Virus record (IMG/VR): IMGVR_UViG_2870495154_000004
Coordinates: 1 to 51,251 of that record
Reading direction: 5' to 3' (one strand)
Source: a virus
Taxonomy: Duplodnaviria > Heunggongvirae > Uroviricota > Caudoviricetes
DNA length: 51,251 bases
Below, piece after piece: positions 1 through 49,883 of this stretch. Within the stretch, counting starts at the first letter, position 1. Each line of letters opens with the position of its first letter. A program made the position numbers and the translations under genes. The notes below the pieces were generated by a model that saw nothing but the letters and a program-made list of their open reading frames with translations, did no database searches and was not told the origin of the DNA.

Positions 1-249
1 TCATCTGATCTGTATCCAGCAGAGAAGGTCACTTAACAACCATCCGCAAGATTTCTTTCCGATAGACTTACGTGGTGGAAATGTTCCCTCCCGTTCAAGT
101 TTCCACGCTTGTGTACGAGAAATTGACGTGATCTCATATCGTTCCTTTTCACGTACCAGTCTGTCGCATTCAATCCCATAAGCTTTCAAAATGACCAGAC
201 GCTGTTCATCTGTTAATGGAAGCCACATACTACCCTCCTGATATATCAA
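1..249 (-). CDS. AlpA-like small DNA-binding regulator (phage/island transcriptional regulator family)
   Basis: 82-aa ORF; the C-terminal GWLLSDLLCWI segment resembles the AlpA/Xis-type HTH family; lies outside the prophage in AT-rich flank. Confidence 0.45.
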   Translation of the reverse strand: MIYQEGSMWLPLTDEQRLVILKAYGIECDRLVREKERYEITSISRTQAWKLEREGTFPPRKSIGKKSCGWLLSDLLCWIQIR

Positions 250-918
250 TACTTTTTATTTCCGGCATGAGCATGAAATGACTAAGTTTCCCGGATAAAC
301 AATGAGTGAAAGTCACTATCATTCATCCAGTCAACACCTTACAAATAAAATGTAATACTATGATTTTTATAGGTCAAAATACTGAATTGAAATGTCAAAA
401 TGGCTTTTAATGGAAAAAATAAAGACATATAGAACCAAATAAAAACAATCCGCGACCAATAAAAACAAAAATTAATATTAAAAATCCATTATGACGATTT
501 TTGTTGACTAAAATTAGGTTGGGATATATAAATAAATCCATGTAAAATTCAAACAAAGCATGGAGGAGTCGCAGGAAGGTGAAATATTTCCATCTAATTT
601 GTGATAATCATCACAAAAATAAGCTACAACAAGCGGAGGAAAAGACAATCTGTTGCTGAACAGACAGAAGCAGGCTACGAATGATCGGAAAATGAAGCAA
701 ATACGCTTATACAGAAGACGCAGAGGTAACTGACGGAGACAATCACAATCAGGAGAAAATTATCGTAAATAATGTATAAAATCTCAGGATATAAACAAAT
801 GTACACAAGCTATCCACGTAATCAGCGGCTGGCTCAGGATTAACGTTTCATTTCAGTGGACAAGATCGATTCTGTCTGACAGCGGACCAATATGTAGCAA
901 GCAGAAACTTCTGACATC

Positions 919-2550
919 ATGGTAACTCGGACAATGCAACAAAAGTATCAGTATGATCGTGTTTTATCCGGCGAACTCCACCCATTCCCTGGCATATACG
1001 AGGCGGTTTCCGAACAAATCCTTTTGCTCATTTTTAAAGCACGTCAACTATATCAGGATCCAGAATATCGCCCCTGGTTTGAAGAACAGCACAGAGTACT
1101 CTCTGCATTACGTGCCAATACAGAGCTCCTGAGAATCTTTAGAGAACAAAGAAGCGCTGAAGAACCAAAGCTTACTATTGAAGAGTCTACCTCCCCCCAA
1201 CCCACTCCTTCTGCTCTTACAGATGCGCTTAATGTGATGTGCCATTTATACAATGGTTTTGATGAAGGAAATATCAGTCTGAAAACTTGGGGGGCGATGC
1301 AAGAGGTACAGACAACATCAACCTTTATCAGCCCAGGAACGAGAACCTGGAAAACACCTGAACTGGCAAAGTTTGTAGGAGATGATTTATTTAATATTCT
1401 GACTGAATGTAAGGCCTGGAGTTCACCAATTCCAGCAGAAACCCGACAGGGGTATTGCCATCAGGATCTGTCTGTTGCGCACTCCTGCACCTCAGAGTTG
1501 CTGGCACACCTGAAGCAGTATCATGAAATAGATGAATCAACAATACTTGCCATAACAATTGGTCTGGCGGTTAACGAATTCTACCAGAATAAGCAAAATA
1601 TTCCAGAATGGCTTTCCTGTTTTGAGAATAAGAACAAATGGCCCTGGGACTGCAGGAAGTCAGATACTGAAGATGTGCACAGACTGAGAGAACGACTATC
1701 GATAATCGGATGTACAGAATTCGTAAAAAATATGTTTTCAGTCGCCAGTCAGCGTGAAATACAGACAATGTACAATATTTATGTCCATATTTATGCAGCT
1801 GAAATCTGTGGTTGGGTAAAAACAAGTATGGCGTATTTTAAACCAACAGATTTCATCCAGTACACATGGAAATTCGCAACAGTTACTCCGGATAAAGATG
1901 AAAAAACCGAGAATACGACCGCATGGGAAAGGGATTATTGTCAGATAACCATACAACGAGATGAACTCCTTAGATTGATTCGCACTAATACTCTGCAGGA
2001 TGCCGCAATTCATCTTTCAGGCTGCCTGCAATATGCATATCTGGAGTCAGTAAAGCATGATATTGACTATCCAGGAATAGCCCCTAATGCTGAAGAAAAG
2101 AAAATGAAACACACAGATTCTATTGAATTTTCTGGAATTCGGAATAACATCATAAATGCAGTAAAACGGCTAGAATCATTTGAAAAATGGTATGAAACTA
2201 ATAAAGTTTTGTTGGTAAGTAATAAAAAAATACGAACAGAGAAGATTGACGTTGTTGTACGACTTGCAGGACTGAAAGCCTATGATTTGCAGGAAGGGGT
2301 TCCGGAAGGTCTGAAATGGAAAGTTAAAGATGGCATAAATGAACGCATCAAAACCGATACCAGTTTATGCCTGCCTCAGGATATCAGTGATACATCGCTA
2401 AACCGTTATCGTCACGCTGTGACGCGCATTGTCAACAACGAAATCGACACATTACTGATGGAACAGAAGAAAAAAAATAAAAGATTCCCCTACAGCAAAG
2501 ATCGACATGCGATCCAACCTTTATGGAGCAAATGCTTGATCGAGCAGTAG
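919..2550 (+). CDS. hypothetical protein, 543 aa, no recognised domain
   Basis: long uninterrupted ORF preceded by about 670 bp of very AT-rich leader; no motif recognised by eye. Confidence 0.5.
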   Translation: MVTRTMQQKYQYDRVLSGELHPFPGIYEAVSEQILLLIFKARQLYQDPEYRPWFEEQHRVLSALRANTELLRIFREQRSAEEPKLTIEESTSPQPTPSALTDALNVMCHLYNGFDEGNISLKTWGAMQEVQTTSTFISPGTRTWKTPELAKFVGDDLFNILTECKAWSSPIPAETRQGYCHQDLSVAHSCTSELLAHLKQYHEIDESTILAITIGLAVNEFYQNKQNIPEWLSCFENKNKWPWDCRKSDTEDVHRLRERLSIIGCTEFVKNMFSVASQREIQTMYNIYVHIYAAEICGWVKTSMAYFKPTDFIQYTWKFATVTPDKDEKTENTTAWERDYCQITIQRDELLRLIRTNTLQDAAIHLSGCLQYAYLESVKHDIDYPGIAPNAEEKKMKHTDSIEFSGIRNNIINAVKRLESFEKWYETNKVLLVSNKKIRTEKIDVVVRLAGLKAYDLQEGVPEGLKWKVKDGINERIKTDTSLCLPQDISDTSLNRYRHAVTRIVNNEIDTLLMEQKKKNKRFPYSKDRHAIQPLWSKCLIEQ

Positions 2551-2642
2551 AGAACTGAGGGGATAACCGTTCTGTTATCCCCTGTTTATTCTGCCAACTC
2601 TCAGGTCTGTCAGAGTTCCAAGAACACGATGCGGCTGGCAAA

Positions 2643-3158
2643 TTATGCGGCTTTTCCATTAACAGATTCGGCCACAAGAACAACACCGTGTTTATTTCGA
2701 TCAGGATGTTCACTCCAGATTTCTGATACAGGAATACTTTCCCCGTCATAGCAGATCCGATCGCCATCAAACGGATAATACCGTGCGGAATCAGTATCTA
2801 AAATAAACACTTTCAGATTCGTTGAACGACGCGCTATATGCTACCAGAGGGCTTTACCTCCTTCATATTGCTCGTTATCACTTAATAGTATAACGCCCGC
2901 TTTTGTGGCTATCGTTTCATAAACAAACGTCGCAAGGCCAACATCACGTACAGCGCCATCGACAACAATCCCTTCAATCTGAGCAACGTCCTGTTCTTCC
3001 CAGAATTTCCGGACAAACACCCCTTCAAGCTGTGAACGACGCTGAAGCTCCAGAGTGGCAACAACCTTATGGCGAATATCACCATCAATAACAGAAGGTG
3101 CAGCTTCGATTACCGCAGCGAACGGAGTCTTTGGATCCCAGATGATCTGGTAAAGCAC
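2643..3158 (-). pseudogene. ORF interrupted by a single in-frame amber codon (105 aa + TAG + 66 aa in the same frame)
   Basis: 105-aa ORF ends at TAG (2841-2843); the same frame stays open for 66 more codons to a TAA at 2643-2645. Confidence 0.35.
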
Positions 3159-3531
3159 ACCCTGAATAGTTACTCCATCCAGTATCGAAAAAGACGAGCT
3201 ACAGTAGCAGGGGAGTAAGACATTGGAATGACAGCCATTTTATGGCCTAAAATTTGAAAACATTAGTATCAATACTGACCTCATCAGTCTGAGCATATAT
3301 TGATAAAGTTTTTATGTTTACACTCAATAAATACCTTGCCAAACAACTAATAGCGATGTCTACATTGCCATTCGACATGCTTACAATTTTTGTCAACAAG
3401 AAAGTCAATTTATATCAACGATAAGAAGTAAACACGAGGACACCAAAACCAAATGTACACACTTTTGTGCTTTGTGTCCCCTGTGTGTACCCAAATGACA
3501 AACTGCAAGAAAATCTAGGCACACACTTATC

Positions 3532-3594
3532 TAACTTATTGATTTAAATGGTGCCGATAATAGGAGTCGAACCTACGACCTTCGCATTACGAAT
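3532..3594. repeat. att core copy distal to int (63 bp; carries the 3' 46 nt of tRNA-Thr plus 17 bp)
   Basis: exact 63-bp direct repeat of 49791-49853; flanking sequence diverges on both sides. Confidence 0.85.
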
Positions 3595-4133: not shown

Positions 4134-5504
4134 ATGCTGAATCTTATCGTTGTCGGAACCCCCAAATACTACACTTTTTTTTCTGAACCCAGTGGCAATG
4201 ACTCTTTCCCTGTGTCGCGACTCTTCGAATCCACGCCAGAGTCTCTTAGAAGCAGATTGCTTCCCCTGACTGAAAAAACCTATCATTTTCTTCAGGAACT
4301 GCCCGTTGTATTTATGTCCGAGCCGGAAATTGAATTCGATGAAGATAATGAAAAAATAGGTTATTTCAGCCACATCCGCTTAGGAAAAATCAGCAAGATA
4401 AGTACGTCCGTGTATAACAGAGAAAAAGTTTTAGCGTTTGATTATGAGATTACCAGTGATATCGGCTACAAGCCCTTAACCAGCGATAAAGAGTACGTAA
4501 GTGAGCTGGAGCTGGGCAGTTTCGGACTAAACAGAACGTTCTGGGCGGTCAAAGAGATTTCCGTAAATGAGATTCTGCGTGTTTTAGGCCTTGAAGGCTA
4601 TTCTAATGTTGAGCCCGCAGCAGCGAGTGCGGAAGCACCGGAGAATAATGAAGAACTAGAGATCATTGCGAATATCAATCAGTACTTGCAGGTGATACTC
4701 GATCATACACAGGGAAACGATGAAGAGGTATTTTACCGCGGTCACTCGGACATCAACTACCAACTGGAACCCTCACTGTTCCGCAAGGATACTCAGGGTA
4801 ACTATCGCTACCGCCATCACGAATCGGACATGATAACAGAGCTGCTGACCGTGCAGCCCGCCGAGTTCAAAGACGATCGGTATATGCTAGATAAACTCGT
4901 GCGCATGCAACACTATGGCCTACCCACACGCCTGCTTGATGTATCAACAAACCCCTTGATCGCACTATATTTTGCCTGCTCTAAAATCAAGCACGATGAA
5001 AATAATCATGAAATTGACGGGAACGTCATTATTCTGACGACGCCCAAAAGTGAAATTAAGTTTTTCGACTCGGATACCGTAAGTTGCATAGCCAATCTTT
5101 CCCGTCTTCCCTCTCGTTTCAAAAGCAGCCTGAAAACTAATCTCACCATTCCGGCGTTTAACGAATCTGAAGAGTGCGGACAACTACTACACCTGATCCG
5201 CGATGAAAAGTCCTATTTCAAAAGCATCATCGATCCGGTCCACCTAAGTAAAATTGTTGTGGTCAAAGGTCGGCTCAGTAACGCACGTATTTCGTCCCAA
5301 TCAGGCGCTTTCCTGCTCTTTGGTGAAAACGTAGACCTACCGGAAACGGGACTCAGTACGCTGAACATCAAAAAGCTTGTTATTAGAAACAAAGAGCATC
5401 TGATGCAGCAACTGAGCCGCCTTGGCATTAACGAAAGCACGGTGTACCCCGGCATTGAGAAGGCTGCTACGGAAATTGCAAAACTATACGATGGACGAAT
5501 CTGA
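4134..5504 (+). CDS. FRG-domain protein with an uncharacterised N-terminal domain
   Basis: 456-aa ORF; C-terminal half carries the FRG signature (VFYRGHSD...YQLEPSLFR...QHYGLPTRLLDVSTNPLIALYFAC); SD-like GAGGA upstream. Confidence 0.6.
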   Translation: MLNLIVVGTPKYYTFFSEPSGNDSFPVSRLFESTPESLRSRLLPLTEKTYHFLQELPVVFMSEPEIEFDEDNEKIGYFSHIRLGKISKISTSVYNREKVLAFDYEITSDIGYKPLTSDKEYVSELELGSFGLNRTFWAVKEISVNEILRVLGLEGYSNVEPAAASAEAPENNEELEIIANINQYLQVILDHTQGNDEEVFYRGHSDINYQLEPSLFRKDTQGNYRYRHHESDMITELLTVQPAEFKDDRYMLDKLVRMQHYGLPTRLLDVSTNPLIALYFACSKIKHDENNHEIDGNVIILTTPKSEIKFFDSDTVSCIANLSRLPSRFKSSLKTNLTIPAFNESEECGQLLHLIRDEKSYFKSIIDPVHLSKIVVVKGRLSNARISSQSGAFLLFGENVDLPETGLSTLNIKKLVIRNKEHLMQQLSRLGINESTVYPGIEKAATEIAKLYDGRI

Positions 5505-5645
5505 TAGCGCTTTAGTCGCACGGCACGCCTGTGTGCCAGCGTGGGCCCATAGCCGCTTTAATCGCCGTGCAGAATGCAGTTTTCAGGTAACTTCAGAGAA
5601 ACAAGTGATCTCATTTCGTTGTATTTATTAGCTGCGGAGTCATTA

Positions 5646-6698
5646 ATGGAAAGAATCAAGAGGAATCCCGAACGATTTGAAGCCTTTGAGCTTTTTTCCT
5701 CGTTGGGCCAGATCTATAATTACGATATTAAAAACCCCGAGCACCAGGATGACTTTATACAAAAGGTCACCACGTCATTAATCGCTTCCCATCAGAATCC
5801 AATTCTGCTGAACGGGAAAAGAATAGAAAACCTATTTAAACACGTTTGCGCCGCACTGAACCACTGCCAGTTTCTTAAACAGGAAGACGCCGGAGACTTG
5901 ATGTCAGCCGATCCCGATCTGGTGGCACCTGACTATCGCATTATACTGAAGGATCGCCGTCAGATCTTTGTGGAAGTAAAAAACTTTAACGCGGATGACG
6001 TGGCTGACGATTATCGCCTGAAGAAATCGTACAGTGATAAGGTTGAAAAGTACGGTGAGCTCCATGGTATTCCAGTTTATTATGCCATCTACATCAGGAT
6101 GCTGCGCCGGTGGGCGCTGGTTGCACGCTCCTCAATGAAGGAGCTAGAGCGTGAACATACCTTGACGCAGGCCTCGGCGCTCGCAAAAAGTGAGATGTAC
6201 CTGCTGGGCGACCTATCGATAGCAACAGAACCCGATCTGGTTTTTGAGCTTATCCCCGACCGGACCAAAGAAGTTTCAGTTAGTCCCGAAGGCATCGCCC
6301 ATTTTACAATTGGCGAGATTAAAATTTACTGCAATGACAGACAAGTAACGGATAAATTTGAAATGAACACGGCGTTTCATCTGATGCGCTACGGAGAGTG
6401 GCTCTGCCCCGGATCGGAGGCAATATTCACTGATGGTCAGCTTGAGAGCATCCGATACACATTTTCCCCGGAAGACGACGAAAATTACAAAAGACAGGGT
6501 TTCGACTTTATAGGTACGCTGAGTTCGCTGGTCACGTCGGCCTTTAACGAGCAGACTGTACACGACAGCCAGATCAGGTCAGTTGACACCCGGCAGAATG
6601 TCAGACTTTTCACGGTAACCATCCCTGATGATTACAAAGGGGGAGGCCTGCCTCTGTGGCGTTTCTCAATGCGGCCAAACTATGAATTTACCGATTAA
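5646..6698 (+). CDS. PD-(D/E)xK nuclease-fold protein (restriction-endonuclease-like) with an unknown C-terminal domain
   Basis: ORF with GGAG 6 nt upstream of ATG 5646 (track ORF opens at 5574); motif order E...PD...(14 aa)...EVK in APDYRIILKDRRQIFVEVK. Confidence 0.5.
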   Translation: MERIKRNPERFEAFELFSSLGQIYNYDIKNPEHQDDFIQKVTTSLIASHQNPILLNGKRIENLFKHVCAALNHCQFLKQEDAGDLMSADPDLVAPDYRIILKDRRQIFVEVKNFNADDVADDYRLKKSYSDKVEKYGELHGIPVYYAIYIRMLRRWALVARSSMKELEREHTLTQASALAKSEMYLLGDLSIATEPDLVFELIPDRTKEVSVSPEGIAHFTIGEIKIYCNDRQVTDKFEMNTAFHLMRYGEWLCPGSEAIFTDGQLESIRYTFSPEDDENYKRQGFDFIGTLSSLVTSAFNEQTVHDSQIRSVDTRQNVRLFTVTIPDDYKGGGLPLWRFSMRPNYEFTD

Positions 6699-7174
6699 GA
6701 GTAATAGTGAGACATTTAATCGGGATAAATCGCTCGATAATTCGTTGCTACTTCAACAACTTATAAATGAGAAGACCCAGCCTAATAACCTCACAATCAA
6801 CTTCATTGCGGATCCCCAAAGATAGACGGGCATAGGCGGCTTTTTATCACCTAAGCGTCAGCGCAACATAAATGATCGGGTCAATGGAATGACCTGTTCC
6901 CCGTTAAACAACACAGATGGTTGTTAGCCACTTCCGCACTTGGCATGACTTGTCCCACCGTTTGATACGTTACTATCTTAGTAATGTCCGCTTCTGGCAC
7001 GAAGCTATCGTAGGTTAGGCCCAAGGACAGCTTTAAGCGAGGAGCGGACGCTGAATTCGAATTCATCGTAAAAATTTTTATGGCCAAGTAGCTCTATAAG
7101 GCCTTTCATTAAAGCTATCTTTGTCGCAAAGCTTATGCAAAAAGTTACTTTATCTTTAAATCTAATAAGATAAC

Positions 7175-7990
7175 ATGATTGACGAAACCCCAAAATCAAC
7201 TTTACTTAAGCAAAAACGAGGCATGCAATTGAAAAAGATTAGGAAAATCAATAAAAAAATTATTGATGAATTGCTATCTCTTCGCGAATCAAGAGGAGCT
7301 ATAGAAGACTTCTCAATGTCTTTCCTACTAAATTTTGCAGAAAATTGTCGACTTATGCATTCACTTATTTCAACGAAAGATAAGAAAATAGATATTTATA
7401 AAACAGCATATCGACAATATTTTGTATTTCTAATCAGTTGCTGGGAAACATATTTTAGAGACGTTTTTGTTTTCGTGCATTCAGTTGATGAATCTAGAAT
7501 TACAACACTACTATCTAAAATGAGAACAGAAACATCTATCAATATAAACACTGAGATAAATCTATCAGAGTTATTGAGTAAAAGCTTTAACTTTCAAAAC
7601 TTAAACGACCTTGAAGAAGCATATAATGGCATGTGGGGTGAGAGTTTTTTAAACTACATATGTACAACTAATATATCTCCTTGCGGTCTGAGTGGCCAAA
7701 TTTCCCAAAGCTTATCGATAGAAAATATATTTCCAGACTGGAGAGCCCTCATAGAGGAAGCATTTTACATTAGGCACAAAGTGGTTCATGATGCAAACTT
7801 CAGACCTAAAGTCAACATTGAATTAATCAGTAAGGTAGAGGCTTTGTTTTTAATAATCCCACAATTTGCAACGCATATCATATCAGAAAGATTCAACTTA
7901 AAAAAAATCGTCATTTCAGATGGTAAAAATAACCATACCTATATTTTCAATATCAGTGATATATTATCTGATGATTGGGTTGTTAGTTGA
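7175..7990 (+). CDS. AT-rich hypothetical protein with HEPN-like Rx4H motif (candidate RNase / abortive-infection protein)
   Basis: 271-aa ORF in markedly AT-rich DNA; C-terminal motif YIRHKVVHD fits the HEPN Rx4-6H signature. Confidence 0.4.
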   Translation: MIDETPKSTLLKQKRGMQLKKIRKINKKIIDELLSLRESRGAIEDFSMSFLLNFAENCRLMHSLISTKDKKIDIYKTAYRQYFVFLISCWETYFRDVFVFVHSVDESRITTLLSKMRTETSININTEINLSELLSKSFNFQNLNDLEEAYNGMWGESFLNYICTTNISPCGLSGQISQSLSIENIFPDWRALIEEAFYIRHKVVHDANFRPKVNIELISKVEALFLIIPQFATHIISERFNLKKIVISDGKNNHTYIFNISDILSDDWVVS

Positions 7991-8229
7991 TGATGGGATT
8001 GTAAGTATATTAACACAAAAAACAAAGAATCTAATGAAGTCCGCTTCTGGCACATAGCAGCCATAGAGACAGTGGCGTAAAGTCATGGAGGATCGGTGGG
8101 AGGAGGTGCAAATCCTCTCATGCAAAAATATGTAAAATCGGTAGCAACTGGAAATCATTCAATACTCGCACTATCGGAAGTTCACCAGCCAACCGCAGCA
8201 CGTTCCTACATACGACGTGTCTGCGGTTT

Positions 8230-8584
8230 TCTTTTTCGCTTAGATTGTGTCTGGTTCTTTCGGCCACTCAATATCAGGTGCAGTTGATGTATCAACACGG
8301 TTCAGCAACACCCGATACTTTTTCCAGGCTTCCACCACCAGCACGACAAGATGCCGCATACAGTGACCCAGTCAGTCCAGTTTCCAGACAACCAGTGCGT
8401 CACCTTTTTGAAGGCGCTTTAAAGCGCGTTTTAATCCTGGTCGGTCTGTCTTTGTCCCGCTTAATTTATCTTCAAATATTTGTTCACATCCTGCACAAAC
8501 AAGAGCGTTTCGTTGCAGGTCTGTATTCTGGTCATTTGTTGATACCCTTACATAGCCAATCAGCACACTGAATCTCCCGTCCAA
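8230..8584 (-). pseudogene. pin: Pin/Gin-family serine DNA invertase remnant (frameshifted and truncated)
   Basis: first 70 aa ([23 protein letters not shown]...LVVWKLD) match Pin-type invertase N-terminus; premature TGA; invertase-like residues continue in another frame; C-terminal HTH missing. Confidence 0.65.
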
Positions 8585-8620
8585 AAGCGCAAATCATGCC
8601 ATGCAGGCCAGAAACGGCCA

Positions 8621-8648
8621 TTATCTAAAACCTCGGTTTACAGGAAAC
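8621..8648. other. gix/pix-like invertase crossover site (orphan)
   Basis: TTATCTAAAACCTCGGTTTACAGGAAAC resembles Gin/Pin recombination sites; lies about 55 bp upstream of the pin remnant. Confidence 0.5.
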
Positions 8649-8973
8649 GGTAAATCAGGCTTCTGGCGCATTACAGAAAAAACAGAACGGCGCAGATATT
8701 CCAGGAAAAGATACCTTCACCAAAAATATTGGTGCCTGCCGCGCATATAGCGCATGGCTGAATATTGGTGGCGATAGTCAGACCTGGACAACTGCACAAT
8801 TCATTTCGTGGCTGGAGAGTCAGGGGGCATTTAACCATCCTTATCATCCTTCCTCAAGTCGTTAATCGCGTGCGTAGCCAAACTCAATACATCAACATGT
8901 CGAAGCATGATCTGCCCTCCCATATACTGTTTTTATATACAGCGGTTGCACTTTAAAGGCAGATCAATAGCTG

Positions 8974-9801
8974 CTACGGAAAGGTAGACGGATTTGTTGG
9001 GATCGTGTCGCCATAGTACTTCCCGCCTGAACTGAATCGCCTGTTAAAGATATCCTGTTCAGACGCCGTGGCCTCTGCCATGGTCATACCTGCTGCAGTG
9101 AGATCGATAAAATGCCATCTGTAAAGGACGTATGAACGACACAAATTGTTCAGTAGCGTACCGAAACCGCTAGGTGACCCCCAAACCATATGGTCGTAGT
9201 AGGCAGTTGCGACAGCCATATCTGTGCCTGTTTTTGCTGACGCTTGAGATTTCAGGGCTGGATTACCCGTCAACCCTCCATCCAGACTGGCAATCAGCAA
9301 CTTATTATTAGATGGAGCTGAGTTATGCGACATCAACACTTCTACAGGGTTCTGGCTCGTCGATGACGGCTTATCTCGAGTAATACGATGATGCACAAAC
9401 ACTGCGAACTGATGATCATTCTGATGTGCAACAACGTACGGCAGGATGCCAGGGCAGCGGAACCGGGCCAGGTGGCCAGATACCTGATTGACCTGAGAGA
9501 CTATGCCATGAATACCAAGCTTTGGTGTTCTCTCAAACTTAACTTCAGTGCTACCAAGTGTGTTTGAATACTTAAAGGCCAAATCAGCCTGCGATACGCC
9601 AGTTAAAGTGGCGGCTGGAATCGCGGCTAAATTTGGCGTTGTCGATATATCAGTACCTGTCGCTGATAAATTAAAATTTTCATCTACTTCATAAGCATCC
9701 AGCAGCCCAAGAGACCCATCAGTTAACCCAGGGTACGGATAAAAAATAGGCATTCTTGAATCTGTAAAATTAGCTCCATATAAAGGATTGGCGCGGCCCA
9801 T
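8974..9801 (-). CDS. hypothetical protein downstream of the tail fibre gene (possible tail-fibre-associated protein; not Tfa-like)
   Basis: 275-aa ORF immediately following stf on the same strand; no motif recognised. Confidence 0.4.
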   Translation of the reverse strand: MGRANPLYGANFTDSRMPIFYPYPGLTDGSLGLLDAYEVDENFNLSATGTDISTTPNLAAIPAATLTGVSQADLAFKYSNTLGSTEVKFERTPKLGIHGIVSQVNQVSGHLARFRCPGILPYVVAHQNDHQFAVFVHHRITRDKPSSTSQNPVEVLMSHNSAPSNNKLLIASLDGGLTGNPALKSQASAKTGTDMAVATAYYDHMVWGSPSGFGTLLNNLCRSYVLYRWHFIDLTAAGMTMAEATASEQDIFNRRFSSGGKYYGDTIPTNPSTFP

Positions 9802-9811
9802 ATTTTACTCC

Positions 9812-12800
9812 TCAAAAGAAAAAGTTATTGTTAAGCATTCCTGCAAGACCTTCGCTGGATGATATTGTGGAAAAACCTGATCCACCATTCGCAAGCGCAA
9901 GACCACCTGTGTTACTAAGGTGTGTCCGGTCTATTGATTTTTCAGACCATACACCGCCATTATTGTAAATAATGTTTCCAACTGTTCCGCCACCTATCCT
10001 GATGTAGTAATCCATAGAACTACCACCAGTTGGTAATACTGTGTCACTCCATGTACCTTTGTATACCAGGTCGTTTGTTGTGAACCCTGTAAATGACCCG
10101 CCATTGAAAAATGACCAGGGTAGAACGCCATAAGTAACAGCAACTTGTTTTTCGGTCATGCCCGGGAAAGTAGGATCAATTGCGTCAGTAGCAGCAGAAA
10201 GCATATTTTGGTATACGTTAAAGAAACGTCCTGGAAATATTCTTCTGTACCATTCTCCAAGCTCGTAAAGAACACCCGTTTTAGCGTACTGGTCCTCATG
10301 CTGCTGTACAACAATTCTTGAACCGTTCCATGTCTCTGTCCTTTGCCCCATAATTGTCAGGAATATATATCTGGCATCCCTGGCCCCAACCAATGCAGCC
10401 ATTTCAATAGAATCCTGCCTGATTTGTGCAGCATTTAAATCAGTTGTCGGCTGGTTATTTTGTCCGTGCCAAAAGCAGATGACCTGTCCGGCATAATTAT
10501 CCCCGTTAACAAGAATTTCCTGCTTTAACATACCGAGGACCTGATCGGAAGTAGAGCCGCCATAGGAGCGGACCTCCCCGGGCACGCTCACCTCTGAAAG
10601 GATTTGGTTGCCGGAATTTCCACTGCCGAAAAGAGAATCCCCGATCAAGAGAAGCTTACTCCCAAGAGATTTACGGATTGTCGTCATCACCTGAGCTTTC
10701 AGCCTTACACCGACAGGGCCAGAGCTCTTATCAGAACGCCGAATTTCCCACTCGTCAGAGTTTTGACTACAACGTAGGCTGATAGAGCTGCCTGCAGCAA
10801 CAGTAACGGATGCCTGACCTGCTATGCGAATCCACGCGGAGCCATCCCAGAGAGCGTAATCTCCGGCAGAAAAACTATTTCCTGAAATGGTACCCGCTGC
10901 GGATGCCTGATAAACCGAATTACGCAGTGGACTAGCAGGATAACCAGAGGCAGGAGCAAACTCCCCTGCGTAAACCAGTGCATCACTGGCTGATGACAGC
11001 AATACCCATCGTGGAGTCATGGATGCGCCACCGGCAGTTTGCAGTCCTGTATAGAGCAATTTGTCCCCTGCCTGCAGCGCCATGCCGTTGAACGTCCCAG
11101 CAGCAGTCACCTCATACCAGCTGTCCGCGATTTTAATCACACCGGTGCCCGGCCCACGCTGGATGACGAACTCTGTACCATTCCAGACAAGATTGTCGCC
11201 GCAGTACAGGCTCTGACTGCCCCAGGTGCCCGGTAGTGTCTCGGAGAGGTTTCCGTTTGTGTTATAGGCCTCGTAGCTATAGTAATCACCGACAGCAAAC
11301 GTCCCTGTCGGCGTGGTAACTGCGGTGGTGAGAAACCGCCCTTTTTTCGTCAGCGATGGCACCGCGCCTGGCGTAAACACGCCAGCCCGCGCTTTCCCGG
11401 TGAACAGCAGCCCGCTGGCCTGCCGGTATTCAATCGCGGTGCCGGTCGCATTAATTCCGAATGCGGCCTTACACACATGCGACGGCAGCGGAGACCAGGC
11501 AGAGCCGTCGCGTGCATTGGTCCGCACCGCGATTTCGGAGAGCGTTGAGCGCGTTGCATCCGGGCGGGCATCTACAACATCCTGTGGGTGTGCAATAATT
11601 TTATTCTGTACATCTTCAGTCAGCGTTGAGAAGCCGACGATGTCATCACCCAACAGAAGACGAGAAATAAATACATCGCCATCTGTCGTCACATAGCTGG
11701 ACATCCGCTTTGTCACCGGATCATAGTCGACGCTGACATAACCAGTATCAGGGTCAAGGTCCAGTGGAATGACCTGCTGAACTTCTGTGGAAAGTTGTGA
11801 GTTCCCGACGCTATTCTCAGGGACCTGTAGCAAGGGAATAAAAACCTGTCCATCCGTTGTGGTATATGAAGACATACGTCTGGTTACCGGATCGTAGTTG
11901 ATTTCTGAAAACCCAGTATCAGGGTCCAGTTCCTGAGATAAAATACTTTGAACATCCAGCGAAAGTTTTTCTGAGCTTACTGAGCCATTTTGAATATTAT
12001 TTCCAGTGACTGCATTTTCAGATAATTGCAGCAAAGGGATAAACACACGACCATCACGCATAGTGAACTTAGACATGCGCATGGAAACTGGGTCATATTC
12101 AACATCAACAATATCGAGACCATCATCCAGCTCAGTTGAGATTAATCCCCTTGATGCAAGATCATCAATATACCCCTTGGAAATCATTACCCGGCCAGTG
12201 GCAGATAATATCCCTGAATTATTGATAACTTCTATTGCAAGATATTTGTAATCGGAGTCTCGGTAATAAGCTGTTGACCCAACAGGAATATTGCCAGCAT
12301 CTGCGTCTGCCTGTGCCGCCGCCAGCGTCGGAAACTCGCGGATTGTCCCAGTTATAGCCGCTGTGCCTGGCTCAGAAGCCTGCAACACAGCTACGCCATC
12401 CTGGTTCTCGTAGGTTTTGAATGCCGCCGTCGCTTCCGGACCTTCCGCTACGCGGAACGACTGTCCGTTGGTCGTAGCAGCAAGGCCTGCAATTGTACCG
12501 TCCGGATCGCTCGGCGTTTTATAGAACGTGAACTTATTCAGCGCATATTCAGAAGCATTGCTCGCGAACTCTTCGGCCTGAGAGGCAGAAATAGCAGCCT
12601 CTGCCGTGTTCTGTGCCACCGCGGACGCGTTACGCGCCACTTCTTCCACCATCAGCTCAAAACGGCGCAGTGCCTCCGGACGGGCATCATCCTCCGTCAT
12701 GGCACCGAGAAAATCATTCAGCGTACCGGGTCGGGAATCTTCATACACGGTGATAATTCCGGCATGTGACGGCGGGAATCCCTCCACCAACAGAATAACG

Positions 12801-12982
12801 CTGTACTGACCGTACTCAACGTCCATACTGTAACGCCCGGCTTCATCCGGATTTTCTGAGGCCACCGTGTTCGCCACCACCGTGGTGCTGTTACGTTTTG
12901 CTTTCAGCTGGATTGTGCAGTTCTGTACCGGTTTACCTGCACCGTCTTTCAGTACACCTGAAATCTTTACTGCCATATTCAC
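9812..12982 (-). CDS. stf: side tail fibre protein, lambda Stf-like N-terminus, three internal tandem repeats, C-terminal GDSL/SGNH-like hydrolase motif
   Basis: first ~120 aa match lambda Stf; three ~35-aa repeats (DYDPVTxRMSSYxTTDGxVFIPLLQ); motif LLLIGDSLFGSGNS near residue 780. Confidence 0.8.
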   Translation of the reverse strand: MNMAVKISGVLKDGAGKPVQNCTIQLKAKRNSTTVVANTVASENPDEAGRYSMDVEYGQYSVILLVEGFPPSHAGIITVYEDSRPGTLNDFLGAMTEDDARPEALRRFELMVEEVARNASAVAQNTAEAAISASQAEEFASNASEYALNKFTFYKTPSDPDGTIAGLAATTNGQSFRVAEGPEATAAFKTYENQDGVAVLQASEPGTAAITGTIREFPTLAAAQADADAGNIPVGSTAYYRDSDYKYLAIEVINNSGILSATGRVMISKGYIDDLASRGLISTELDDGLDIVDVEYDPVSMRMSKFTMRDGRVFIPLLQLSENAVTGNNIQNGSVSSEKLSLDVQSILSQELDPDTGFSEINYDPVTRRMSSYTTTDGQVFIPLLQVPENSVGNSQLSTEVQQVIPLDLDPDTGYVSVDYDPVTKRMSSYVTTDGDVFISRLLLGDDIVGFSTLTEDVQNKIIAHPQDVVDARPDATRSTLSEIAVRTNARDGSAWSPLPSHVCKAAFGINATGTAIEYRQASGLLFTGKARAGVFTPGAVPSLTKKGRFLTTAVTTPTGTFAVGDYYSYEAYNTNGNLSETLPGTWGSQSLYCGDNLVWNGTEFVIQRGPGTGVIKIADSWYEVTAAGTFNGMALQAGDKLLYTGLQTAGGASMTPRWVLLSSASDALVYAGEFAPASGYPASPLRNSVYQASAAGTISGNSFSAGDYALWDGSAWIRIAGQASVTVAAGSSISLRCSQNSDEWEIRRSDKSSGPVGVRLKAQVMTTIRKSLGSKLLLIGDSLFGSGNSGNQILSEVSVPGEVRSYGGSTSDQVLGMLKQEILVNGDNYAGQVICFWHGQNNQPTTDLNAAQIRQDSIEMAALVGARDARYIFLTIMGQRTETWNGSRIVVQQHEDQYAKTGVLYELGEWYRRIFPGRFFNVYQNMLSAATDAIDPTFPGMTEKQVAVTYGVLPWSFFNGGSFTGFTTNDLVYKGTWSDTVLPTGGSSMDYYIRIGGGTVGNIIYNNGGVWSEKSIDRTHLSNTGGLALANGGSGFSTISSSEGLAGMLNNNFFF

Positions 12983-13040
12983 CCCACAAAAAAGCCCGCC
13001 TGAACCAGCGGGCTGTCATAACACTGTGTTACCTGGCTAA

Positions 13041-13640
13041 TCAGAACTTATAACCGACACCCACGATGAAACCGTCAGTGCGCCAGTCGCCACTGCCGGA
13101 GCCTTCATAAGCAATATCAATGGCCACGGATTCGGTCGGGTTAAACTGCACGCCAGCCCCCCACGCCAGAGACGTGTTGCTGCGGCGACCATCATCACTT
13201 CCGGTCAGCACTTCGTGCGTTTTCCCCTTGTTGTCAGTTACGCGGAGATAATCCCCGGAGAAAGTCGAAATACGGCTGTAAGCCACACCCGCCATCGCAT
13301 ACGCGCTGAACCATTCATTCACGCGCACAGACGGCCCCGCCATCACGCTGAACCAGCGGTTACGCACGGAATCTTCATGCCAGCGGGTATCGCTGTAACG
13401 GGTAAGCTGGCGATTCTTGTCTTCTGCATAGCTGAATGACGTCACCATCCCCAGCGTGTCCGTAAACTCATAACGGTATTTCATGTTAATCCCGTTAAGA
13501 TCATCGCTGCCGGGAACGTTCGTCGAGGCATGAAGATACCCCGCGCTTAGCGTGGACTGATGTTCAGACGCCCATGCAGGCGCACCGGATACGACCAGAC
13601 AGATGGCTGCGGACAAAATGGCTGCACAAACTTTACGCAT
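13041..13640 (-). CDS. lom: Lom/Ail family outer-membrane protein
   Basis: 199 aa with signal peptide; C-terminal [23 protein letters not shown] matches lambda Lom. Confidence 0.85.
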
Positions 13641-13710
13641 AATTACCTCTCGCTTTTCTGCAATAAAAAAGGCGTCATTCCTGACGCCCTTTATTGGGGT
13701 TATAAATATT

Positions 13711-48753: not shown

Positions 48754-49793
48754 AGGCTGAAGCATGGCGGGTCAGCAAACTTGGTGAAATACCTGATATA
48801 ACGTTCGAGGAAGCGTGTATCAGGTGGCTTGAAGAGAAAGCACATAAAAAATCACTGGACGATGACAAAAGCCGGATCGGATTCTGGCTTCAACATTTCG
48901 CAGGAATGCAACTAAGAGACATTACTGAATCAAAAATTTATTCAGCAATGCAGAAAATGACGAACCGGCGTCATGAGGAAAACTGGAAACTCAGGACAGA
49001 AGCATGCAGAAAAAAAGGGAAACCTGTTCCAGAATACACGCCAAAACCAGCGTCCGTTGCAACGAAGGCTACGCATCTTTCATTTATAAAAGCCCTACTA
49101 AGAGCCGCAGAGCGTGAATGGAAAATGCTGGATAAGGCACCAATTATTAAAGTGCCTCAACCAAAGAATAAACGGATCCGCTGGCTGGAGCCCCATGAAG
49201 CACAAAGGCTGATTGATGAATGTCCGGAGCCATTAAAGTCTGTTGTTGAATTTGCACTGGCAACAGGCTTAAGACGCTCGAACATCATCAACCTTGAATG
49301 GCAACAAATAGACATGCAGCGCCGGGTGGCATGGATAAACCCGGAAGAGAGTAAATCAAACCGCGCAATTGGCGTTGCGCTGAATGATACTGCATGTCGC
49401 GTTTTGAAAAAACAAATCGGGAATCATCACCGTTGGGTATTTGTGTACAAGGAAAGCTGTACCAAACCAGACGGAACGAAAGCGCCAACAGTAAGGAAGA
49501 TGCGGTATGACGCAAACACAGCCTGGAAAGCGGCGCTGAGACGGGCTGGTATTGATGATTTCAGATTTCACGACTTGAGACACACCTGGGCAAGTTGGCT
49601 GGTTCAAGCCGGAGTCCCGTTGTCAGTGTTACAGGAAATGGGAGGCTGGGAGTCTATCGAAATGGTTCGTCGATATGCTCACCTTGCACCTAATCACCTT
49701 ACCGAACACGCACGGCAAATAGACTCGATCCTGAACCCATCGGTCCCAAATTCGTCCCAGTCAAAAAATAAGGAAGGTACTAATGATGTGTAA
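48630..49793 (+). CDS. int: tyrosine integrase, P22 Int-like, thrW-specific
   Basis: 387 aa; arm-binding N-terminus and catalytic HDLRHTWAS...VRRYAH; stop codon is the first 3 nt of the att core. Confidence 0.9.
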
Positions 49794-49853
49794 CTTATTG
49801 ATTTAAATGGTGCCGATAATAGGAGTCGAACCTACGACCTTCGCATTACGAAT
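49791..49853. repeat. att core copy adjacent to int, overlapping the 3' 46 nt of thrW
   Basis: exact 63-bp direct repeat of 3532-3594. Confidence 0.85.
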
Positions 49854-49883
49854 GCGCTGCTCTACCAACTGAGCTATATCGGC
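49808..49883 (-). tRNA. thrW: tRNA-Thr (anticodon CGU)
   Basis: 76-nt cloverleaf ending CCA; anticodon loop TTCGTAA; next to proA. Confidence 0.9.

Follow-up and report, generated by a model that had tools for sequence, protein, structure and literature searches.

What is a 64-codon "recombinase family protein" doing beside the tail-fibre genes of a lambdoid prophage, and can the switch to which it seems to belong still be thrown? The initial annotation of this DNA had proposed a fossil invertible-segment switch, decayed and locked. We analyzed the locus within the whole stretch of 51,251 nucleotides in which it lies (the window) and consider it very probable that it is the stranded right-hand end of a Mu-type (Gin/gix) tail-fibre inversion cassette, the loss of which was completed by a module swap.

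The window matches the chromosome of Escherichia coli CREC-532 (NZ_CP024830.1) at 100%. It contains the gene for tRNA-Thr(CGU) at 49808-49883, which is the integration site of the prophage (thrW), and a perfect direct repeat of 63 bp (3532-3594 and 49791-49853) which includes the 3' part of this tRNA gene and marks the prophage ends. The element therefore spans approximately positions 3532-49853, and the relic lies inside it. On the minus strand at the distal end of the prophage the gene order is J, lom and then the side tail-fibre gene stf. The host element of the relic is a lambdoid (J/lom/stf) prophage. Beyond the left repeat, positions 1-3531 belong to another island with YfjI-family, DUF3987 and HTH genes (PGAP annotation), and the thrW site is thus apparently occupied in tandem. 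Three cargo genes lie on the plus strand (4134-7990) in the part of the att-bounded element that separates the relic from attR. They code for an FRG-domain protein of 456 aa, a protein of 374 aa without a Pfam match and a protein of 271 aa with a sub-threshold Pfam match to HEPN RiboL-PSP. They appear to be candidates for anti-phage or abortive-infection cargo and occupy a position like that of the lambda b region.

The relic is made up of the following parts, given from the recombination site onwards.

8621-8646, strand not assigned: gixR-type site, TTATCTAAAACC-TC-GGTTTACAGGAA, unique in the window
8567-8620, minus strand: leader of 54 nt from the gix site to the gin' start codon, which aligns with the leaders of Mu, a P2-like prophage and the prophage of strain FDAARGOS_1077
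8376-8566, minus strand: 5' part of gin', 191 nt, with a GTG start and the catalytic Ser9
8331-8375, minus strand: pinE-like patch, codons ~64-79, which holds a TGA; delimited by alignment to e14 pinE nt 162-236
8240-8334, minus strand: tfa', the 3' end of a tail-fibre assembly gene, ~30 codons and the TAA at 8240-8242, joined to the invertase remnant without a change of frame

The sequence TTATCTAAAACCTCGGTTTACAGGAA at 8621-8646 has the architecture of a gixR-type recombination site, that is, two inverted half-sites of 12 bp around a 2-bp core, 26 bp in all. It matches gixR of phage Mu at 25 of 26 bases and is identical to the gixR of two relatives, the prophages of strains FDAARGOS_1077 and ZH142. 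At up to three mismatches the site is found once in the window, with none expected in shuffled sequence. Its outer half-site faces gin' and its inner half-site the former invertible segment. The initial annotation had placed a gix-like site about 55 bp upstream of an invertase start and had allowed that the sequence might not be gix-related. The site is indeed there, 54 nt from the GTG, and the near identity to Mu gixR speaks for its relatedness.

The invertase gene itself starts on the minus strand with the GTG at 8566, which is also the start chosen by PGAP, and codes for the N-terminus of a Gin/Pin-type serine invertase, as had been claimed. The Pfam Resolvase profile matches with E = 2.7e-22, but only with profile positions 2-91 of 145, and no DNA-binding domain follows downstream; the C-terminal helix-turn-helix reported missing is thus truly absent. 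Over nt 1-191 of Mu gin the identity is 98% (4 mismatches, two of them synonymous and two non-synonymous), and the wider stretch 8376-8843, which takes in gixR and the first ~200 nt of S' besides gin nt 1-191, shares 94.9% identity with Mu. The intact locus for a 196-aa invertase in a P2-like prophage (L008) matches 8702-8376 at 99% (323/327), and this homology breaks off abruptly at 8376. Here the pinE-like patch of 45 nt begins. Its last 32 nt are nearly identical to e14 pinE, and it keeps the frame of gin'. The differences from pinE cluster around an in-frame TGA at 8372-8374 (CGG to TGA, CGT to CAC, AGT to TGT). This is the premature stop noticed earlier; it follows codon 64 and closes the annotated 64-codon open reading frame. 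After it the same frame runs on for ~14 more pin-like codons (8371-8331). In total the first 236 nt of an invertase gene survive (191 gin-like and 45 pinE-like), about the first third. Ser9 is present, but the catalytic domain, which in a complete enzyme extends through the E-helix, ends at about codon 79, and after ~8331 there is C-terminal tfa sequence instead of a DNA-binding domain.

In one point the initial annotation has to be corrected, namely that the gene continues in another frame. Translation of all three minus-strand frames gave a continuation in the same frame only, and we dropped the frameshift reading. Because this frame runs directly into the C-terminal end of tfa, the truncation is a recombination joint and not a frameshift. 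The joint is located at about 8331-8334 and shows a TGGA microhomology. Since the invertase gene ends at this in-frame joint, neither a catalytically complete nor a DNA-binding invertase can be made. In the alignment with e14 pin and Mu gin that had been called for, gin' is Mu-like and the likeness to pinE is that of the 45-nt patch. We also considered e14 as the source of the relic and rejected it, as the identity over pin nt 2-236 is only 76% and e14 is absent from CREC-532.

On the other side of the joint, tfa' matches PHROG tail-fibre assembly families and the end of the Pfam profile Caudo_TAP (positions 104-130 of 131, E = 3.7e-12). It is far from a full-length chaperone such as lambda Tfa or Mu U (~130-200 aa), and PGAP annotates 8240-8344 as a tfa pseudogene without N-terminus. 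Five copies of the relic, taken from different prophages and insertion sites, agree base for base in the TGA and the gin'::tfa' joint, and their pinE-like patches also coincide without indels. This points to a single origin of a relic that is both old and shared. With a probe of 181 nt across the TGA and the joint (at least 80% coverage) we found the joint in 537 of 5,426 complete E. coli genomes, thus in about 10%.

Such a spread may raise the question whether the 64-codon frame is maintained as a functional small protein, for instance as a modulator of other invertases. The frame stays open as far as the same TGA in every copy examined and is as widespread as the joint. However, the product would lack the dimerisation helix and the DNA-binding domain, the substitutions relative to Mu gin are balanced between synonymous and non-synonymous, and the copies of the relic differ non-conservatively at codons 38-42. 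Furthermore, a simple promoter scan of positions 8100-9000 returned no sigma-70-like site. We therefore regard a functional small protein as extremely improbable.

With the sequence downstream of it, the tfa' end recurs in ~1,029 genomes, for example in an O157:H7 prophage. This would fit with an origin of tfa' as the lambdoid tfa gene's own 3' end, which stayed in place when a cassette was captured or swapped in upstream. The sequence downstream of tfa' (8126-8239, minus strand) is conserved and moves with the relic as well as with the right ends of other lambdoid prophages. In the O157:H7 strain 7.1_Anguil (L010, 4745-8055) the 3' end of tfa' and its downstream sequence, with a dinI-like gene after them, flank espM2 and espW. 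The latter are type III effector genes, and the location is the ssrA-side end of the prophage. In several prophages a gene for a class I SAM-dependent methyltransferase has been inserted beside the relic and is flanked on either side by a copy of a duplicated tfa' fragment (L002, 6001-7265; L007, 4930-6083). A second lambdoid prophage of CREC-532, at potB, has a similar order of methyltransferase, DinI and tfa' without gin' (L013, 2707-3886); IS3 and a group II intron disrupt its tail-fibre region. The tfa' remnant appears to be a general marker of the point at which cargo is exchanged at the right ends of lambdoid prophages.

An inversion switch needs two inverted sites. Within the 51-kb window we found a single one: no second gix was detected by the exact 26-mer search (up to three mismatches), by the search for the core palindrome or by the inverted-repeat search. 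In addition, we compared every 26-mer of the 51 kb with four half-site variants and did the same with 20 shuffled sequences. The next best candidate in the 51 kb has 7 mismatches in 24 positions, which is within chance as the best candidates in the shuffles have 6-8. A degenerate partner site was thus rejected for the 51-kb window by all four types of search. The pattern search of the whole element that had been proposed hence bears out the earlier failure to find an inverted partner.

Three more features describe what now stands in place of the segment and next to it.

8629-8842, plus strand: stub of an alternative tail-fibre C-terminal exon (S'-type), recognized by its identity to Mu and to the FDAARGOS_1077 and ZH142 prophages and by PHROG tail-fibre matches
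8843-12600, minus strand: foreign distal tail-fibre module of 3.76 kb, without DNA homology to the relic-bearing relatives
12601-12982, minus strand: conserved N-terminal part of stf, shared with the relic-bearing relatives (Pfam phage_tail_N, E = 2.2e-70)

FDAARGOS_1077 (L002) and ZH142 (L003) carry the same relic beside a complete Mu-style segment. One strand holds the variable part of stf with a tfa gene, the other a second tfa with an S'-type exon (Sv-tfa/tfa-S'v), and the partner gix is situated inside stf. In FDAARGOS_1077 both gix sites lie within an 82-bp inverted repeat. The window shares with these two prophages only positions 8126-8843 and then the DNA from 12601 onward. The homology begins at 8126-8129 with 96-97% identity up to 8843 and resumes with 89-90% identity over 12601-13689, that is, the N-terminal part of stf and lom. 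What remains of the invertible segment is 222 bp (8621-8842) consisting of gixR and ~200 nt from the start of the alternative fibre exon. The frame of the exon starts inside the gix site (NLGLQETVNQASGALQKKQNGADIPGKD...), is cut at 8842/8843 and runs into foreign DNA up to a TAA at 8863-8865. Apart from this stub, the segment has neither alternative fibre C-termini nor assembly chaperones.

The foreign module supplies stf (gene 9812-12982) with its distal ~930 codons and also contains an open reading frame of 275 aa (8974-9801) and a region with an SOS box (8925-8944). It is rare: three of the 5,426 complete genomes have it. The two other carriers are L005, which is a contractile-tail prophage located at bio/ybhB, and L006, which lies in a Qin-like region. 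The homology to the contractile-tail prophage starts exactly at 8842, one base from the end of the homology to FDAARGOS_1077 and ZH142. As these two relatives match only outside of 8843-12600 and the contractile-tail carrier from 8842 on, the module has taken the place of gixL, of the two variable exons and of both tfa genes. To judge from these alignments, the partner site was removed by the swap, which extends from about codon 127 of stf to 197 nt past gix, and did not degenerate. The contractile-tail carrier implies module exchange between sipho-type and myo-type prophages.

Some properties of the module may be recorded here. The stf open reading frame (9812-12982, minus strand) is uninterrupted and codes for 1,056 aa, whereas PGAP gives only an N-terminal pseudogene of 148 codons. 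In this fibre Pfam recognizes the N-terminal domain only, and the C-terminal 362 aa found no match when searched against PDB sequences. A GDS-type motif (LLLIGDSLFGSG) hints at an SGNH-like esterase, for which neither Pfam nor the PDB sequence search offers support. The 275-aa open reading frame (minus strand) occupies the usual place of the tail-fibre assembly gene. It has no Pfam match, a match to phrog_18370 (function unknown) and a weak match to the C-terminus of a minor tail protein. The SOS box, TACTGTTTTTATATACAGCG, is a near-consensus LexA site directly upstream of a short minus-strand open reading frame (8831-8923), which is cut off by the joint at 8842/8843. In strain PRO_A-1028 the same box precedes an intact gene for 79 aa and then a gene for an S24/S26 peptidase (L006, 3455-4011).

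With both ends of the locus at hand, the notion of decay in place can be weighed. According to it, a complete pin gene suffered a nonsense mutation, a frameshift and the loss of its 3' part, while the partner gix was mutated beyond recognition. The TGA does break the reading frame, and the 45-nt stretch does have clustered differences from pinE. On the other hand, there is no frame change, the invertase homology ends sharply at tfa with a joint that is identical in unrelated prophages, and the partner region is absent and not degraded, its place being taken by a rare foreign module. Decay in place is thus very unlikely in our view. We favor instead a cassette end stranded by recombination, and we suggest the following two steps. 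A Mu-type cassette would have been captured in a lambdoid prophage, where the invertase was cut by an illegitimate in-frame joint to tfa. In a second event the foreign 3.76-kb module would have been swapped in and gixL, both variable exons and both tfa genes would have gone. The order of joint formation and module swap is what we infer and is not proven; the anatomy, the joints, the absence of the partner and the distribution of the joint among genomes are direct observations. With a single site left and no enzyme to act on it, the switch can no longer work, and the prophage has the 1,056-aa open reading frame as its fixed fibre. The earlier description of a decayed and locked fossil next to the tail-fibre genes is therefore well supported for this prophage, with its truncated invertase and an orphan gix without partner in 51 kb.

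In the relatives which have both gix sites the situation may be different. We constructed a synthetic query in which the relic is joined to the opposite end of the FDAARGOS_1077 segment, that is, the junction expected after inversion. It matches strain WS1933D with 100% identity over all 772 nt. The prophage of this strain and its trp/yciE/ompW insertion locus are those of FDAARGOS_1077, as is the 64-aa product (WP_071598134.1). Between the two strains the flanks align collinearly at 99.4-99.97% identity, and the 3.2-kb segment lies in the opposite direction with the outer half-sites in place. The orientation in WS1933D is opposed to that of FDAARGOS_1077 and five others with the same prophage and locus. 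More generally, the relic adjoins an S'-type exon in 132 genomes and a Mu S-type exon in 139, some of the latter being deleted prophages. In E. coli AR434, for instance, a heavily deleted prophage at prfC has kept the relic and both variable exon/tfa pairs (L015, 5979-9098); it appears to be without the constant part of stf, a layout which is common among the 139 genomes. The invertase-less relic with its site and enhancer region is widespread and is associated with segments in both orientations. Both orientations in spite of a dead invertase suggest that inversion is carried out by invertases encoded elsewhere in the genome, although homologous recombination across the 82-bp repeat could yield the same inverted product. 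The switch may thus not be dead in these relatives.

Which elements could the relic still contribute? For hin the Fis-binding, cis-acting enhancer lies in the N-terminal coding region, ~100 bp from hixL (PMC2724282, PMC3798978), and for gin the title of Kahmann et al. 1985, as cited in PMC3378877, places it "within the invertase gene". We positioned the enhancer in gin' by homology and from the statements on hin. Over the corresponding region (8566-8376) the DNA of gin' has 4 differences from Mu gin in 191 nt. As the relic keeps this part of gin, site and enhancer could still be supplied, and gin' could have retained a working Fis-dependent enhancer. The invertases Gin, Cin, Pin and Hin cross-complement each other. 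CREC-532 has one other locus which matches a chimeric probe for the 3' half of a gin/pinE/pinQ-type invertase. e14 can be ruled out as this locus, since iraM directly follows an intact icd. A walk along the chromosome led to the potB-site lambdoid prophage, in which no invertase was found. Given the second locus, a trans-acting enzyme may exist, and the orphan site is perhaps a usable DNA substrate.

One could go further and suppose that the locus is active in cis in CREC-532, in that the orphan gixR and the enhancer region are used by an invertase from elsewhere and recombine with the gix sites of other prophages, giving large inversions or deletions. The second invertase locus and the segment inverted in WS1933D beside the same dead gin' speak in favor, and trans action of a prophage invertase is documented for PinQ, a Qin enzyme that inverts the P segment of e14 (PMC12529663). 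Yet there is no partner site within 51 kb, and invertases of the Din family work only when both sites and the enhancer share one supercoiled domain, with a strong bias towards nearby inverted sites (PMC2724282). Moreover, e14 is missing from CREC-532, the second locus is known only as a 3'-half match, and the inversion in the relatives could come from recombination across the repeat. Ongoing activity at this site therefore appears very unlikely. We rate somewhat higher, though still as a tentative idea that is probably incorrect, that one lambdoid lineage captured the gin'::tfa' relic as a cis-acting module of gixR and enhancer, that this module spread to the ~10% of genomes as a host-range switch which shares the enzymes of others, and that the window later lost its partner. 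If so, lambdoid fibre segments would be flipped by the invertases of other resident prophages in a distributed switch of which the window is one member.

The locus can be compared with several known systems. With the G-segment of phage Mu (Gin, gixL/gixR, sis enhancer, S/U and S'/U') the locus shares the fibre exon, site, leader and invertase gene in the same order and orientation. Unlike in Mu, only 236 nt of the invertase gene remain before the fusion to tfa, there is neither a gixL nor an invertible segment, and the host element is lambdoid. The Pin/P-segment of e14 in E. coli K-12 is likewise a Din-family switch in a defective lambdoid element, and it resembles the 45-nt patch. In contrast to our locus, of which the invertase part is only 76% identical, pinE is intact in e14 and the P segment inverts (PMC4272514, PMC12529663). 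The prophages of FDAARGOS_1077, WS1933D and ZH142 have relics which are 95-97% identical (gix, leader, gin', TGA, patch and tfa'), but these prophages keep gixL in stf and the Sv-tfa/tfa-S'v segment, both lost from the window. Finally, PinR of Rac and PinQ of Qin are also uncoupled halves of fibre inversion systems beside stf/tfa in lambdoid remnants. They are the mirror image, as there an intact enzyme lacks its own segment whereas here a site and an enhancer region lack the enzyme.

In summary, the locus is a decayed copy of the Mu/P2-type Gin-gix system, an ordinary relic of a kind already known, and the 64-codon "recombinase" and the tfa pseudogene are explained as remains of this well-known switch. 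Beyond the single prophage, invertible fibre segments without an invertase are common in lambdoid prophages of E. coli and are seen in both orientations. Host-range switching of a prophage may therefore depend on co-resident prophages, and the bacterial use of chimeric fibre proteins, as reported for StfE2 of e14, may likewise depend on them.
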